A DNA stretch of 32,000 nt from Candidatus Pacearchaeota archaeon (GTDB lineage Archaea > Nanobdellota > Nanobdellia > Pacearchaeales > UBA284): the NCBI GenBank assembly GCA_026016245.1, contig CP061211.1, forward strand, positions 300,001 to 332,000, given 5' to 3'. The translations under genes were made by a program, and so were the position numbers. Each line of letters starts with the position of its first letter. Position 1 is the first letter of the stretch. The notes under the pieces were generated by a model. The model worked only from the letters and a program-made list of their open reading frames with translations, was not told the DNA's origin and ran no database searches. Shown here one piece after another: positions 12,662-24,220 of the stretch.

Positions 12662-12729
12662 AACATAATAAATTTTAAATAACCTTGTTGTTTTGAATTA
12701 TCGACGAAAACAAGAAAAAATTCCTGTTA
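12662..12729 (+). repeat. attC-like structured site A (short form, left boundary of the array)
   Basis: AACAT 12662-12666 and CTGTTA 12724-12729. 12664-12708 is identical to 21052-21096 in site H. Followed by the conserved double hairpin 12730-12774. Confidence 0.65.
12664..12708 (+). repeat. 45-bp perfect direct repeat, copy 1 (left half of site A)
   Basis: CATAATAAATTTTAAATAACCTTGTTGTTTTGAATTATCGACGAA, identical to 21052-21096; contains a TTTTAAATA TATA-like box. Confidence 0.9.
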
Positions 12730-12847
12730 AATACTTTTACCCTACGTAGTGGGGTAAAATTGCGTCCGCAAAGTTAAATTTCCATTTCTATCAATCCTGC
12801 CAAAGGCAGACTAAATGTCCGAAGGACTAAGAGGCAAGAACCCTTAA

Positions 12848-13195
12848 TTATTGTTTAGTACCAATAATTATTTCTGTTGCTTCTGGATTAATTGTTTGAC
12901 CAATTACAGGTTTATTATAGACTGCTTGATCAACACCACTTACTTTCCAACCTTCAGATTCAAGATACTCTTTTATTTGATCGGCAAATTGAAAAGCTTC
13001 CCCATCACCCATTACTGCAGTAATCCTAATTTCTCTATTTTTATTAATTTGAAGTACTTGGTCTAATCGTGTCTTTAGCTCGGGAGTTAGAGTTCTTGGT
13101 TGATTGCCTATGTTAACTTGATTTGCAGTTATTCCACCACTTTGATCATAGCTAGTTACATGAATATTCTTTTCATCTTTATTTTCTTTTTCCAT
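12848..13195 (-). CDS. Hypothetical protein (cassette 1)
   Basis: Start chosen at MEKENK (13195). The N-terminal SYDQSGGITANQVNIGN motif is shared with the upstream small ORF. Confidence 0.5.
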   Translation of the reverse strand: MEKENKDEKNIHVTSYDQSGGITANQVNIGNQPRTLTPELKTRLDQVLQINKNREIRITAVMGDGEAFQFADQIKEYLESEGWKVSGVDQAVYNKPVIGQTINPEATEIIIGTKQ

Positions 13196-13197
13196 TG

Positions 13198-13401
13198 TTA
13201 CACCCCAATACCCCAAATTATTAGACCAGCAATTATTGCCACAGCTAAAGGAATTAAAAAATATTTAAACCAAGGATTTTTCCATAATCTTTGCCTTTTT
13301 GGACTCTGGTCTGCTTCTTGTGATGATTTGTGGCTATTTATATTTACTTTATTTGCAGTTATACCTCCTTTCTGATCATGACTTTCTATTTTTACCATCA
13401 T
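13198..13401 (-). CDS. Small C-terminally membrane-anchored protein (cassette 1)
   Basis: SHDQKGGITANKVNINS motif plus the C-terminal hydrophobic helix FLIPLAVAIIAGLIIWGIGV. Confidence 0.45.
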   Translation of the reverse strand: MMVKIESHDQKGGITANKVNINSHKSSQEADQSPKRQRLWKNPWFKYFLIPLAVAIIAGLIIWGIGV

Positions 13402-13502
13402 AATTACATGGAATAACTTTAAACTTAAATAACTATCGATGATGTTACTGAAAGGGTTCTCGCCTCTTTTTTATTCTAAGAAATGGAAATTTTATTGGAC
13501 TT

Positions 13503-13634
13503 AACATATGCGATTAAGAGAAGTCCGAAGCCCTCGAAAAAATTTCCCTCGTGAAATAGAGCTGGAAATTTTTTCAGAGATGGCGAGGATTTGGGAAAAT
13601 TCTGCAAGAAAGCGAAACCGTTAAATCGCTGTTA
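13503..13634 (+). repeat. attC-like structured site B
   Basis: cTTAACA[TAT]GCGATTAAGAGAAGT ... CGTTAAATCGC-TGTTAT. Internal perfect 12-bp stem GAAAAAATTTCC/GGAAATTTTTTC. ATTTGGGA at 13589-13596 and CTGTTA at 13629-13634. Confidence 0.7.
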
Positions 13635-13687
13635 TATCCCCCGCTAGGGTCCGAGCGAAAGCGAGGAAGTCGACCTCGGCGAGCCAT

Positions 13688-14128
13688 TTATAACTTAAAC
13701 TTATAGACTCTCAAAACTCCTTTTGTATAATCAGTAAACATTATCTCTTTTAATTCTATTTTCAAAACAGTGTCAACAAGCTCTGGTTCATGATGAGATA
13801 AATCTCTCTTTTTAGAATAAAATTCTTTAGCTTGTTTTGCTTCTGTTCCGCTCAAAATTTCGGCGATCCCTTCTGCCTGTAAACAAGCTCTTTCTTTTTT
13901 TCCTTGATCATCAATAGCTACACTTACATTTGGATTTATTTTAATATTCTTAACTTTAATACTTTTTCCAGAAGTTACAACATATAATGTAAAACCATCA
14001 ACTATATAGTTTACTGTTGAAGCTCTAGATTCATTCTCAGAACAGGTCGCAATAACACAAACATTCTTGTTTTCAATAAATTGTTTTATTTTTTGTTTCA
14101 TAAATTCGTTTGTTTCTGTCATAATCAT
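13688..14128 (-). CDS. Pyridoxamine 5'-phosphate oxidase-like FMN-binding split-barrel protein (cassette 2)
   Basis: About 146 aa. The pattern VCVIATCSENESRASTVNY..DGFTLYVVTSGKSIKVKNIKINPNVSVAIDD is typical of the PNPOx-like / general stress protein 26 family. Confidence 0.6.
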   Translation of the reverse strand: MIMTETNEFMKQKIKQFIENKNVCVIATCSENESRASTVNYIVDGFTLYVVTSGKSIKVKNIKINPNVSVAIDDQGKKERACLQAEGIAEILSGTEAKQAKEFYSKKRDLSHHEPELVDTVLKIELKEIMFTDYTKGVLRVYKFKL

Positions 14129-22709: not shown

Positions 22710-22718
22710 ATTGAGTTT

Positions 22719-22799
22719 AACATCTGCCATTAAAAGAAGTTTTTTGCGAAGCAAAAAATTTGGAAAAATTCGCCAGAGTTTCTCTTTTAACGGCTGTTA
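22719..22799 (+). repeat. attC-like structured site J
   Basis: TTTAACA[TCT]GCCATTAAAAGAAGT - TTTTTGC GAA GCAAAAA - ATTTGGAA ... CTTTTAACGGC-TGTTAG. Confidence 0.75.
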
Positions 22800-22845
22800 G
22801 CAGACCCGACGGAAAGGAGGGCAAGGAAGTGAAGATTCCGCAGAG

Positions 22846-23423
22846 TCGGGCGAAGAGGCACTAAACTAGTTTAGAAATAATATCATCAATTTTCTTTTCT
22901 ATATCACCAGAAGAATTGTCGATGGTAATATGCGGTTCTTTGATTGGTTCAAATTCTTTTCCGCGTAATTTATGAATTTTGAAATGTGGGGTACCACCTC
23001 TATCTCTATCTCTAACTCTTTCGTAAAGCCGTTTAGAAACTATTTTCTCATCACAGGTAACTTCAATTGGAATATAATTAGATCCGGTCTCTTCTGTAAG
23101 TTTTTTTGCACCCTTTCTAAATTCTTCACGATTGAATAAAGTATCTATAATGACTGATTCATCATTTTCTAGCAATGATCTTGCTTTGTCAAACATCCGT
23201 TTGTAATTTCTAACCCTAAATTCATGTGGCCAAGGTTCCGGAGGTTTTTCTTCTGATTCTGCCATAACTTCACTACCTCTAATATGTTTATAGCCTGTTT
23301 TTTGAGAGATTAAATTGGCGATGTAGGTTTTTCCAACTCCTGTATTTCCACACATTATAATTAGATTGGCCATATTCATCATATAATAGTTTAGTTATTT
23401 AAAATTTATGCCTCGGAGCCCGA
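22846..23423. repeat. Gene-bracketing inverted repeat of cassette 10
   Basis: TCGGGCGAAGAGGCA (22846-22860) / TGCCTCGGAGCCCGA (23409-23423): 12/15 complementary (6+6 around a 3-nt mismatch). Confidence 0.75.
22861..23382 (-). CDS. P-loop NTPase / small kinase-like protein (AAA_33-like) (cassette 10)
   Basis: Walker A IIMCGNTGVGKTYIA near the N-terminus; about 170 aa, typical of small nucleotide or zeta-like kinases. Confidence 0.55.
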   Translation of the reverse strand: MMNMANLIIMCGNTGVGKTYIANLISQKTGYKHIRGSEVMAESEEKPPEPWPHEFRVRNYKRMFDKARSLLENDESVIIDTLFNREEFRKGAKKLTEETGSNYIPIEVTCDEKIVSKRLYERVRDRDRGGTPHFKIHKLRGKEFEPIKEPHITIDNSSGDIEKKIDDIISKLV

Positions 23424-23431
23424 TTTCTGCT

Positions 23432-23582
23432 AATATCGGAATTAAAAGAAGTTTTTTCTTCAGAGCTGGACGAGGCTGAGGCACACCACAACCGAGACCC
23501 TCGAAGAAAAAATTTGGGAGAACAACGAATTTTGCTTGGCAAAATAGCGAAACGGTCGTTGTGAACCTTTTAATTCCTGTTA
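23432..23582 (+). repeat. attC-like structured site K (longest form)
   Basis: CTAATA[TC]GGAATTAAAAGAAGT - TTTTTTCTTC...GAAGAAAAAA long stem - ATTTGGGA (23512-23519) - branched hairpin - CTTTTAATTCC-TGTTAG. Confidence 0.75.
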
Positions 23583-24185
23583 GTTTCTCCGACCCTACAA
23601 AGTGGGGTCGGATTGCGTCCGCAAAGTTTTTTTGGGCAAAATTACATCAAGAACGAAGTTCAATTAAGTTAAAAGAATAGGGGGCAAGAAGACTAAAAAT
23701 GTCTTAAATTAGCCAATGACATTCTTTCTCTATTTGTATCACATAGGGCAACATAATCGTCCAAATTCCCGCAATTTTTTGTAACTACTCTTGCTGTTTG
23801 CCTATCACACCAGTCTAGAATTGTAGTTTCGAAGGCTCTGTCATCATATCCGTGTTCGGAGACTGAATTTTCTAATCTACGTCTTAATTTAAATTGTTTT
23901 GCTGTAGAATGAACACATATCAAAGAGCCGAGAATATTAATACCTATTAAGAGTGGTTTGTCATAAGTAAAGGGAATTGGTCCAGCATTCATCAGAAAGA
24001 GGGTTTCACCTACAGGAGCAGTTCTATAAAAATCTGCAATATATTCCAATCCCGCTTTAATTTTCTCAATCATATAAATATTAGAAATGCTGGACTATTT
24101 AAAGGTTTTGATTATGTTATCTTTAAATAGTAGTAAATATTTCTTGCCCCATCTACTATTTTGCCCAAAAAAATTGAAACTAACA
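23578..24185. repeat. Gene-bracketing inverted repeats of cassette 11 (three nested pairs, including the R-box extension)
   Basis: TGTTAGTTTC (23578-23587) / GAAACTAACA (24176-24185), 10/10. TTTTTTTGGGCAAAAT (23627-23642) / ATTTTGCCCAAAAAAA (24158-24173), 16/16. GGGGCAAGAA (23681-23690) / TTCTTGCCCC (24141-24150), 10/10. Confidence 0.9.
23693..24073 (-). CDS. Hypothetical protein, 126 aa (cassette 11)
   Basis: Intact ORF with its own TATA-like box (the minus strand reads CTTTAAATAG at about 24095-24104); no recognisable motif. Confidence 0.5.
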   Translation of the reverse strand: MIEKIKAGLEYIADFYRTAPVGETLFLMNAGPIPFTYDKPLLIGINILGSLICVHSTAKQFKLRRRLENSVSEHGYDDRAFETTILDWCDRQTARVVTKNCGNLDDYVALCDTNRERMSLANLRHF

Positions 24186-24220
24186 CCTATTTCCCGAAGT
24201 AATATAGCGGGAAATAGTTA
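24182..24220 (+). repeat. Minimal attC-like site L (terminal site, next to the recombinase promoter)
   Basis: CTAA[CAC]CTATTTCCCG - AAGTAATATAG - CGGGAAATAG-TTAG. Perfect 10-bp stem (24187-24196 / 24208-24217), GAAGT at 24196-24200, GTTAG at 24217-24221. Confidence 0.7.

Follow-up and report, generated by a model that had tools for sequence, protein, structure and literature searches.

Can an archaeon operate a gene-cassette platform of the integron kind with an ordinary Xer-type recombinase? Integrons are regarded as a bacterial invention defined by the integrase IntI and its special domain. The question is raised by a stretch of 32,000 nucleotides (the window) from Candidatus Pacearchaeota archaeon (GenBank assembly GCA_026016245.1, contig CP061211.1, positions 300,001 to 332,000 of the forward strand), which has a GC content of 31% and carries archaeal housekeeping genes, including those for a CDC48-like AAA ATPase, an RsmB/NOL1 methyltransferase and SMC. 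Between positions 12662 and 24221 short genes alternate with long imperfect palindromes (sites A to L), and next to the last of these lies xerA, the gene of a tyrosine recombinase. An earlier note, made from the letters alone, had interpreted the region as a structure-based, co-oriented cassette array of the integron kind. That the region is a site-specific cassette system we hold to be very likely. The fuller statement, that it is a chromosomal array of 11 mobile gene cassettes attached to xerA, with XerA as the catalyst, we consider probable. The array resembles an integron in its working, yet it lies outside the IntI-defined family.

Read on the + strand, a site consists of AAC, 2-4 extra nucleotides, an 11-nt left arm, GAAGT, one or more hairpins, the box TTTGGG, one or more further hairpins, often GAAC, and then the complementary right arm and (C)TGTTA. 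The structured sites sit between the gene units, in all cases on the + strand, at a spacing of 0.6-2 kb; seven significant, co-oriented sites and five degenerate ones separate short open reading frames (ORFs), and this is the arrangement (two or more sites of equal orientation, separated by less than 4 kb, with short ORFs between them) by which integron arrays are recognized. CTGTTA itself occurs 9 times inside the array and 15 times in the whole window. The intergenic DNA of the array, 183-403 nt long, has a GC content of 37%, as compared with 31% in the array genes and in the flanks, in agreement with the GC-richer spacers reported before.

A simple site finder based on arm complementarity was dropped, since it was too noisy in AT-rich DNA, and stricter rules and a covariance model were used instead. 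From the window and related loci 51 sites were collected, and the covariation of the arms was scored on 39 distinct sites, with shuffles and slid pairing as controls. The arm helix is 97% paired, a value biased by the selection of sites with at most 2 mismatches in 9; the covariation score, which this selection leaves unbiased, was 0.81 versus 0.19 for shuffles and at most 0.13 with slid pairing, and compensatory (two-sided) changes were found in 9 of 10 arm pairs. An RNAalifold consensus of 25 sites, with compensatory changes in 16 of 25 pairs, shows an AACA/TGTT closure, then a 3-column bulge on the 5' arm formed by the extra bases, which had already been noticed as unpaired, then the arm helix, a helix of AAGT with ATTT of the TTTGGG box, and a GG/CC closure.

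The covariance model, trained on 25 sites of which two are from the window, recognized D, J, K, B, G, F and I with E<0.01, all seven on the + strand and within 13.5-23.6 kb, and it found nothing with E<0.2 outside the array in the 32-kb window (20 kb of flanks). Thus the repeated layout described in the earlier note is real, but it is not common to all copies: L is a different, simple 10-bp hairpin, F is composite, C a fragment, and A and H are AT-rich. Similarly, only part of the 12 structured sites listed there deserve the name when they are folded as single-stranded DNA. D, K, L, G, B, J and I fold better than their dinucleotide shuffles, and A, C, E, F and H do not (z from -1.1 to +1.2). 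Site I begins 13 nt upstream of its previously assigned start at 21873.

The segments just outside the sites reveal a second layer of structure, in that their complementarity runs across a gene and not across a site. All exact GC-containing inverted repeats of at least 12 nt in the 12 intergenic segments pair segments that flank one gene block (for example 15947-15960, TCGGGAGAAAGGGC, with 17137-17150), and in cassettes 2, 10 and 11 the box after CTG (GTTAnnnn) is complementary to the TTGnnnnTAAC box at the far end of its own unit. When a cassette is closed on itself, so that its right end meets its own site and left end, the mean gain in folding energy is -15.1 kcal/mol and the highest -33.5, as compared with -3.3 kcal/mol for the genomic junctions and -3.7 for all non-cognate pairs, and in 9 of the 11 cassettes the cognate partner ranks first of 11. 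In 36 cassettes from 17 loci of different genomes the end complementarity has a median of 25.5 versus 16 for site-flanking pairs (p=2e-7) and 17 for random pairs (p=3e-8). What was called a site is only the inner part of a much longer palindrome, unnoticed in the earlier note, that is split across each resident cassette. Insertion of a circle by recombination inside its own long palindrome would leave the resident cassette with two complementary ends, and plain insertion of a palindromic repeat between genes would be expected to give the opposite pattern.

Repetition, palindromic structure, a comparatively high GC content and presence between the genes of many genomes would also suit a repeat of the repetitive extragenic palindrome (REP) or miniature inverted-repeat transposable element (MITE) type, which spread between genes without any cassette mobility. 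We consider this extremely improbable, since the complementary segments flank genes, not repeats, since all copies are co-oriented and none lies in the 20 kb of flanks, and since the strain differences described below are whole-cassette replacements bounded by the AAC box. Dispersed copies with terminal inverted repeats of their own, as in REP and MITE families, were not seen; the element is confined to arrays, and the scattering that would have spoken against the earlier interpretation did not appear.

The site family appears to be widespread in Woese-, Pace-, Nano- and Aenigmatarchaeota. In a set of one-genome-per-species archaeal and bacterial assemblies the motif TGTTA, 20-45 nt, ATTGCGTCCGCAAAGT was found at 70 loci versus about 7 expected by chance, almost all of them in metagenome-assembled genomes (MAGs) of these four groups; third-party annotation (TPA) records labelled Methanosarcinales are among them, and we doubt these labels. 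The window and the motif loci are homologous in the structured intergenic DNA only, never in the cassette genes. In 80 related loci the covariance model detected 75 further sites, with the strands never mixed within a locus. Short junctions in other genomes, such as GAGTTTAACA TCGGGCCC TGTTAAACTC in L012 (the L numbers denote related loci or contigs from other assemblies), keep variable stumps of both arms and are read as deletion derivatives. The reverse, that the short sites are ancestral and the long interior is an inserted mobile hairpin element, was judged less likely, since the short sites keep variable lengths of both arms.

That such units move is indicated by three related lineages, whose XerA proteins are 64-66% identical to that of the window; three XerA proteins that recur on many contigs from different samples, P0076, P0100 and P0101, allowed strains to be compared. 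For P0076, L074, L076 and L077 agree with L075 at 99.9% identity over a segment that starts at one site, takes in three cassettes and xerA and extends 10 kb past the gene; upstream they are unrelated to it, the break being ...ACGCT|TAAC|TTATAG versus ...GCAAC|TAAC|TTATAG. Among the strains with P0100, three differ from one another in the proximal cassette, which is joined at GAGAAAC|, CACATAAC| and GTTGAAC| to TACTATTAAACG (the GTTGAAC junction continues with |TACTATT), two further contigs begin exactly at the junction, and the downstream DNA is 99.6-99.9% identical throughout. In strains with P0101 the position of the first cassette is taken by a methyltransferase unit or by Kiwa KwaA/KwaB. 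This polymorphism, with breakpoints at the sites, speaks for the cassette interpretation of the earlier note, as does the better-than-shuffle folding of most sites.

The point of exchange can be narrowed down further. In three strains a common cassette end, ...AAATTGCGTTGAA (...TTGCGTTGAA), is followed by C, C or T and then by three different sites; because the variable base travels with the site, the crossover lies at AA|C, and all breakpoints seen coincide with AA|C of the TTGnnnnTAAC box. Breakpoints at CTG|TTA, as proposed before, would lie at the opposite boundary of the site and were rejected: the homology between sites of different genomes crosses CTGTTA unbroken and always stops at AAC. 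Judged from these sequences, the interior of a site belongs to the cassette on its xerA side. With the crossover at the 5' boundary and the interior travelling with the xerA-proximal cassette, the + strand corresponds, after correction of the orientation, to the bottom strand of an integron and not to the top strand, a correction to the earlier note.

Viewed from the - strand, the layout is that of a canonical integron. The recombinase gene diverges from the array, the insertion site adjoins it, 11 of the 15 ORFs point away from xerA, most genes are followed by their site, and the cassettes start at G|TTA. On the strands as given, 11 of the array ORFs are on - and 4 on +, not 10 and 5 as counted previously. 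The cassettes apparently carry their own promoters; the TATA-like boxes before array genes are by-eye sightings only.

The enzyme next to the array is not an integron integrase. The best match of XerA in NCBIfam is XerA_Arch (NF040815; 211 bits, slightly below the cutoff of 220), and the integron integrase model TIGR02249 gives 180 bits (cutoff 265), matching in two separate stretches. The best solved structures are the XerA proteins of Pyrococcus abyssi (4A8E) and Thermoplasma acidophilum (5HXY), with which it aligns from end to end, and the catalytic R...HxxR...H...Y motifs are present. XerA has 24 amino acids where VchIntIA (2A3V) has 69, and thus lacks the IntI-specific insertion. The recombinase is therefore XerA-type, contrary to the integron-like reading of the earlier note: it lacks the specific additional domain around patch III by which IntI, and with it the integron, is defined (Cury 2016; IntegronFinder), and it is a Xer-family recombinase as in Xer/dif and in integrative mobile elements exploiting Xer (IMEX). 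In sequence the neighbouring enzyme is a conventional XerA of the archaeal type; its identity to numerous archaeal XerA proteins, among them the one from the cultured methanogen Methermicoccus shengliensis, is 63-74%. Ten other array-linked recombinases likewise have XerA_Arch as best match and are without the IntI insertion; the homologues of L030, L063 and L068 pass the XerA_Arch cutoff. The high identity of XerA across phyla hints at transfer of xerA.

The association of xerA with the array recurs. XerA homologues are carried by 7 of the 70 motif loci, and in 5 of the 7 the gene follows a site of its own strand at a distance of 0.6-3.5 kb. At the six xerA-anchored DPANN loci examined, every model site is upstream of xerA and on its strand, and no model site was found in the 10 kb downstream of xerA. 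A perfect simple hairpin, preceded by a cassette right-end box, is located 60-100 nt upstream of the xerA start (L011, L030, L063, L068, L072, L074, L078 and L086-88). In the window this is site L, a separate hairpin with a 10-bp stem and an 11-nt loop (CTATTTCCCG-N11-CGGGAAATAG; 10-11-10 for short); the same type with a covarying middle is present in L011, L072, L074, L078 and L086. A metagenome scan for CTATTTCCCG-N11-CGGGAAATAG returned two unrelated chance matches and no xer gene.

In a distant XerA clade (L063 and L068) the proximal site is a perfect 12-6-12 palindrome (AAGTTATCATAA GTTAAT TTATGATAACTT and AGATTATCATAA CTAAAG TTATGATAATCT) with CATAA-N6-TTATG, a core typical of dif, and resembles dif, a comparison that relies on the general 11-6-11 description of dif and on E. 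coli dif. Since each of the two palindromes is preceded by a cassette right-end box, the array ends at a dif-like site in that clade. The type of proximal site, 10-11-10 hairpin or dif-type 12-6-12 core, covaries with the XerA clade. A counterpart of attI, a site beside the recombinase gene with exchange at G|TT, is thus present by function and not by homology; and as in IMEX, which integrate at or next to a Xer site and have Xer-type borders, the cassettes abut the xerA-proximal site.

Upstream of xerA in Methermicoccus shengliensis (L073, 3880-3925; XerA 69% identical to that of the window) there is a hairpin of the same kind, TTTCGGACAAC TC CAATTTCCCG AAATGTTTT CGGGAAACTAC, and the covariance model finds no cassette sites at this locus, which indicates that the module of xerA and hairpin is older than, or more widely distributed than, the cassette system.

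The array might instead be the remnant of a canonical integron, a cluster of attC sites lacking an integron integrase (CALIN), with ordinary attC sites, a true IntI encoded elsewhere or lost, and xerA as a mere neighbour or provider of a target. The sites can indeed be parsed in the manner of attC (R box of 7 bp, 5-nt spacer, L box of 7 bp, AAC...GTT ends, AA|C crossover), and integrons and CALINs have been reported in Nanoarchaeota MAGs, about a dozen of which were called (Ghaly et al. 2022, PMC9668308). These archaeal integrons were found by bacterial criteria; they include six IntI genes with the specific domain, and their attC sites, including the Nanoarchaeota one that was tested, look bacterial (PMC9668308), unlike the sites considered here, which one narrow motif finds in 70 species-level genomes. 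Moreover, xerA has a constant place and orientation in every anchored DPANN lineage examined, the recombinase-specific proximal site covaries with the XerA clade, and no adjacent enzyme has an IntI-type insertion. We therefore regard a CALIN as quite improbable, and return to XerA, which would be the catalyst of the cassette exchange.

The following mechanism is proposed. Each cassette would consist of one or two genes and one long imperfect palindrome. In the circle the 5' half of the palindrome on the + strand would be made up of cassette-specific stems, TTGnnnnTAA|C, 2-4 extra bases, the 11-nt arm, GAAGT and one or more GNA-loop hairpins, and the 3' half of TTTGGG, one or more further hairpins, the complementary arm, TGTTAnnnn and the complementary stems. 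Recombination would occur at AA|C of the 5' box, equal to G|TT on the other strand, which is the dinucleotide step used in integrons. The circular cassette would enter at site L, the simple hairpin just upstream of the xerA promoter, whereby older cassettes would be displaced away from xerA and the palindrome would be split between the cassette ends.

Which strand folds is suggested by the loops. In 3.3 kb of array intergenic DNA the + strand contains 31 copies of the sequence CGNAG, a C-GNA-G mini-hairpin loop, and the - strand 3, as compared with 0.4 and 1.0 per kb on the two strands of the flanks; in 48 sites of other genomes the counts are 67 versus 6. C-GNA-G triloops such as GCGAAGC form exceptionally stable DNA hairpins. 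By analogy with the bottom strands of integron attC sites and with the folded attP of CTX phage, the + strand would fold as single-stranded DNA and be the strand exchanged, and such a single-strand mechanism is the one that we favour, if only slightly.

The same system and enzyme could also operate by classical recombination of duplex DNA, as in IMEX or pdif modules, with the outer boxes as the core and the hairpin DNA as an accessory. The short junctions of other genomes, such as that in L012 with 10-bp inverted arms and an 8-bp spacer, have the normal shape of such a core, the perfect 12-6-12 palindromes of L063 and L068 fit as well, and both strands of the sites fold equally well. However, the outer boxes of the long sites are 80-200 bp apart in the duplex and can be brought together only by folding, compensatory changes preserve the arms and inner hairpins, the tenfold strand bias of the GNA loops would be hard to explain, and the short sites keep arms of variable length, as deletion derivatives would. 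Duplex recombination thus appears unlikely.

A strand-specific loop composition would also suit a transcribed strand, and complementary segments on both sides of a gene would pair the ends of its transcript. One could therefore argue that the elements act as RNA, in processing, stabilization, regulation or 5'-3' pairing of transcripts, the cassette pattern being secondary. This we consider very improbable: the genes are on either strand and the sites in one orientation, the loops are C-GNA-G triloops of the DNA-hairpin type rather than GNRA or UNCG tetraloops, an Rfam scan gave no match at the gathering thresholds or even at E<=1 (Rfam itself is without an attC family), and neither the strain breakpoints at AA|C nor the fixed position relative to xerA would be explained.

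Several points weigh against recombination of folded cassette circles by XerA. The cassette circles are deduced from the sequence, and all evidence is computational. XerA may be a mere housekeeping dimer resolvase, its linked site being exploited by something else, a concern that arises because the proteins to which it is 63-74% identical include XerA of Methermicoccus, which has no such sites; also, a recombinase encoded elsewhere in the 710-kb genome may be the catalyst. The folding energies of the single strands are equal for both strands, so that the choice of the strand relies on loop composition only, and the two duplex boxes of the folded site carry a direct and not an inverted TTTAAC repeat, an unusual core geometry for a tyrosine recombinase. 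Cassettes 2 and 7 have no cognate end repeats that we could find; together with sites A, C, E and H they look decayed, and with 5 of the 12 sites degenerate much of this array may be immobile. Finally, no second strain of this genome was found, so that polymorphism is known from related lineages only. A look-up of the exact XerA protein gave one other contig only (Logan DRR463595). It spans the third of the array nearest to xerA; this independent Logan assembly of the same organism (L001) breaks exactly at site H.

How does the system compare with those already described? As in integrons, small cassettes form a co-oriented array, the gene of a tyrosine recombinase diverges from it, and the insertion site lies beside this gene; the sites are imperfect palindromes with AAC...GTT ends, conserved structure, covarying arms and an AA|C (= G|TT) crossover; the site is at the 3' end of the cassette on the majority-coding strand; toxin-antitoxin and defence genes are among the contents; and strain variation is greatest near the insertion site. 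Unlike in integrons, the enzyme is a XerA without the IntI-specific insertion, and the sites contain GNA-loop hairpins and internal boxes of conserved sequence (GAAGT, TTTGGG, GAAC). The bulge has another place as well: its unpaired extra bases are on the cleaved arm, between R box and L box, whereas those of attC are in the L box of the other arm. In addition, the palindrome reaches 50-130 nt past the crossover on both sides, which makes the resident cassette ends complementary, and the cassettes apparently have promoters of their own and genes in either orientation.

With IMEX and the CTX phage the system has in common a host-type Xer, integration next to a Xer site and tandem accumulation. 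Xer recombinases act on the folded single-stranded attP of CTX phage, about 150 nt long (PMC5357621), and CTX integrates as this folded strand, in which a duplex site is mimicked. In contrast, IMEX are phages or islands with replication or packaging genes of their own, not cassettes of one or two genes, and they have neither an interchangeable family of hairpin sites nor an array of at least 10 units; integrated CTX loses its hairpin and cannot excise, whereas each integrated cassette here retains its whole site.

The pdif modules of Acinetobacter plasmids, reportedly Xer-bounded, are likewise small gene modules with Xer-type borders in varied contexts. Modules of this kind are mentioned in PMC9771954. 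They have plain 28-bp duplex XerC/XerD sites in alternating orientation, in contrast to the hairpin sites of 80-200 nt, all in one orientation and attached to a xer gene, that are found here; inversely oriented 28-bp XerC/D flanks were not seen. With the archaeal XerA/dif system for the resolution of chromosome dimers (Cortez 2010, PMC2958812) the enzyme family is shared, and the proximal sites of L063 and L068 are dif-like; some archaea keep dif beside xerA (PMC5357621). However, dif is a single 11-6-11 duplex site without cargo, and the xerA-linked site here is the entry of a polymorphic array and in the lineage of the window has a 10-bp stem and an 11-nt loop.

A literature search, which covered sources other than subscription-only papers, gave no description of a Xer-linked cassette array in archaea. 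The system is best described as a Xer-based integron analogue that is undescribed in the literature searched: this locus and its relatives combine the cassette-platform logic of an integron with an unmodified Xer-type enzyme and a different family of sites. If functional, it bears on the origin of IntI from Xer, on the recognition of folded DNA by a tyrosine recombinase without the IntI insertion, and on the way in which genome-reduced symbiotic archaea gain and shuffle accessory and defence genes. We tentatively propose, as a possibility somewhat short of probable, that in DPANN archaea a single ordinary XerA or a close paralogue doubles as cassette integrase, which would use the xerA-linked site, dif-like in some lineages, as attI and a widely shared family of folded single-stranded "giant attC" hairpins as cassette sites, and would do so without the IntI-specific domain regarded as necessary for recognizing hairpins. 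If this were true, the integron principle would have been invented a second time, independently, or the system would be a living model of the transition from Xer to IntI, and a pool of defence and toxin-antitoxin cassettes would be exchangeable across DPANN phyla. The complementary cassette ends are a computational signature of past circles and could reveal cassette systems that current tools miss.

Table. Features of the array in the window. CM, score with the covariance model; z, fold as single-stranded DNA relative to dinucleotide shuffles (+ strand unless stated); ddG, gain at the circular junction in kcal/mol, followed by the rank of the cognate partner among 11.
Feature	Positions	Strand	Scores	Description
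xerA	24272-25093	+		tyrosine recombinase, 273 aa; candidate cassette recombinase
Site A	12662-12729	+	CM 9.5 bits (not significant); z=-0.8	distal, degenerate AT-rich variant; right end AAATTCCTGTTA
Site B	13503-13634	+	CM 47.2 bits, E=1e-8; z=-2.8	full attC-like; outside training set
Site C	14189-14240	+	no CM match; z=+0.2	5' fragment only (AACATCAGGATTATGAGAAGT)
Site D	15798-15902	+	CM 65.3 bits; z=-4.7	best-preserved: AACA[TC]GGAATTTAACG ... CGTTAAATTCC TGTTA
Site E	17159-17291	+	CM 14.6 bits, E=0.39; z=-1.1 (+), -2.0 (-)	weak, diverged
Site F	18157-18308	+	CM 29.6 bits, E=1e-4; z=+1.2	composite: permuted module (18138-18249), then normal 3' half
Site G	20185-20318	+	CM 34 bits, E=1e-5; z=-3.1	
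Site H	21050-21142	+	CM 10.2 bits; z=-0.5	AT-rich variant; ACC in place of initial AAC
Site I	21860-21958	+	CM 25.1 bits, E=0.0015; z=-2.2	
Site J	22719-22799	+	CM 59.3 bits; z=-2.5 (+), -3.6 (-)	minimal, 81 nt
Site K	23432-23582	+	CM 58.2 bits; z=-5.4	AAT in place of initial AAC; outside training set
Site L	24172-24221	+	z=-5.2	attI-like, xerA-proximal: TTGAAACTAAC|AC CTATTTCCCG AAGTAATATAG CGGGAAATAG
Cassette 1	12664-13504		ddG -17.6; rank 1	site A interior and two small ORFs, 12848-13216 (-) and 13198-13401 (-); end repeats 12776-12789/13479-13492, 12837-12845/13452-13460
Cassette 2	13505-14190		ddG -2.2; rank 8	PNPOx-like gene 13688-14128 (-), Pfam PF01243
Cassette 3	14191-15799		ddG -29.7; rank 1	genes 14341-14769 (-) and 14774-15688 (-), the second a PDC-S18 defence candidate (PADLOC 2e-94); end repeats 14247-14259/15777-15789, 14333-14342/15760-15769
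Cassette 4	15800-17160		ddG -33.5; rank 1	Mrr_cat/LmuA-like nuclease gene 16082-17089 (+); three nested end repeats 15947-15960/17137-17150, 16006-16017/17113-17124, 16028-16036/17092-17100
Cassette 5	17161-18171		ddG -7.8; rank 1	genes 17493-17702 (-) and 17713-18078 (-); end repeat 17457-17469/18129-18141
Cassette 6	18172-20186		ddG -13.7; rank 1	genes 18404-19552 (+) and 19545-20153 (+; M48-like peptidase)
Cassette 7	20187-21051		ddG -1.6; rank 9	isochorismatase-like gene 20369-20989 (-)
Cassette 8	21052-21861		ddG -5.7; rank 1	uracil-DNA glycosylase (UDG)-family gene 21216-21866 (-), true start probably at 21803; end repeat 21215-21227/21839-21851
Cassette 9	21862-22720		ddG -16.3; rank 1	HD-domain gene 22132-22677 (+); end repeats 22017-22030/22697-22710, 22076-22087/22674-22685
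Cassette 10	22721-23433		ddG -10.4; rank 1	small AAA_33 kinase-like gene 22861-23382 (-); complementary end boxes TTAGCAGA, TCTGCTAA
Cassette 11	23434-24183		ddG -27.6; rank 1	newest by position; gene 23693-24073 (-); end boxes GTTAGTTTC/GAAACTAAC; end repeats 23627-23642/24158-24173, 23681-23690/24141-24150

The homology of site D (Table) to other genomes begins exactly at 15798 and continues through CTGTTA. Sites A and H, with a GC content of 22-24%, have a left half of 45 nt in common that is 90% identical (family D10; 12664-12722 and 21052-21110) and absent from other genomes; a 16-nt part of this half is complementary to 23394-23409, next to where the cassette 10 gene starts. In the permuted module of site F a TTGnnnnnAAC box is fused straight to GAAGTG, followed by a right-arm-like segment, TTTGTTAG and a hairpin, and the matching left arm and AAGT come last. 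The module recurs in L030, L061, L063, L074 (6600-6700), L078 and L088 (40-160), and in L078, L081 and L084 it is situated upstream of xerA; its preservation across genomes indicates that it is not a product of random decay.

In three cassettes TGTTA is followed by a conserved module (12730-12775, 15903-15947 and 23583-23627) composed of a short hairpin (e.g. CCCATACGTAGTGTGGG) and ATTGCGTCCGCAAAGT. It contains the palindrome TTGCG-TC-CGCAA, the cassette-specific stem starts right after CAAAG, and an exact 16-mer with upstream TGTTA is present in the 70 DPANN loci. A second common module, GCGTTCTATCAA...GCGATACATCAAGAACAAG, forms an asymmetric bulge in the left flank of cassettes 3, 4 and 9 (14258-14305, 15958-16003 and 22030-22075) and was also found in L011, L016, L026, L056 and L065. 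The copy in cassette 3 begins with GTTCTATCAA, which is nearly complementary to the right-end box of this cassette, TTGAATAGAAC.

The overlapping ORFs of cassette 1 have in common a 41-nt stretch, 80% identical (13109-13149 and 13339-13379), which encodes a ...GGITAN.VNI... motif, that is, a small domain duplicated within one cassette. In related strains the cassettes in first or nearly first position beside xerA code for Kiwa (KwaA/KwaB), N6/N4 methyltransferases, HEPN/MNT, MazE and PemK (L084, 1462-2929; L078, 5200-6240; L075, 4028-6283; L074, 5339-5916), a defence and toxin-antitoxin repertoire that resembles that of bacterial chromosomal integrons.

Two cassette genes are common to L048 (4953-5722 and 6345-6872) and L069 (4543-5308 and 1-525), with nucleotide identities of 71% and 68%. 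They are 0.6 kb apart in L048 and 4 kb in L069, and one of them has the opposite orientation with respect to the sites; as one cassette in two genomes, the only such case, the pair was set aside, being too diverged for its boundaries to be mapped cleanly. Complementary cassette ends might let a gene flip by homologous recombination, which might explain the genes on either strand.

Downstream of xerA an ORF of 885 amino acids (28400-31057, - strand) contains long imperfect repeats with a period of 12-15 nt (families D1 and D2; 28539-29420). The repeats code for a low-complexity region of acidic character. The corresponding ORF of L001 gives faint matches of the Big_9/NPCBM type, and the product is probably a surface protein.

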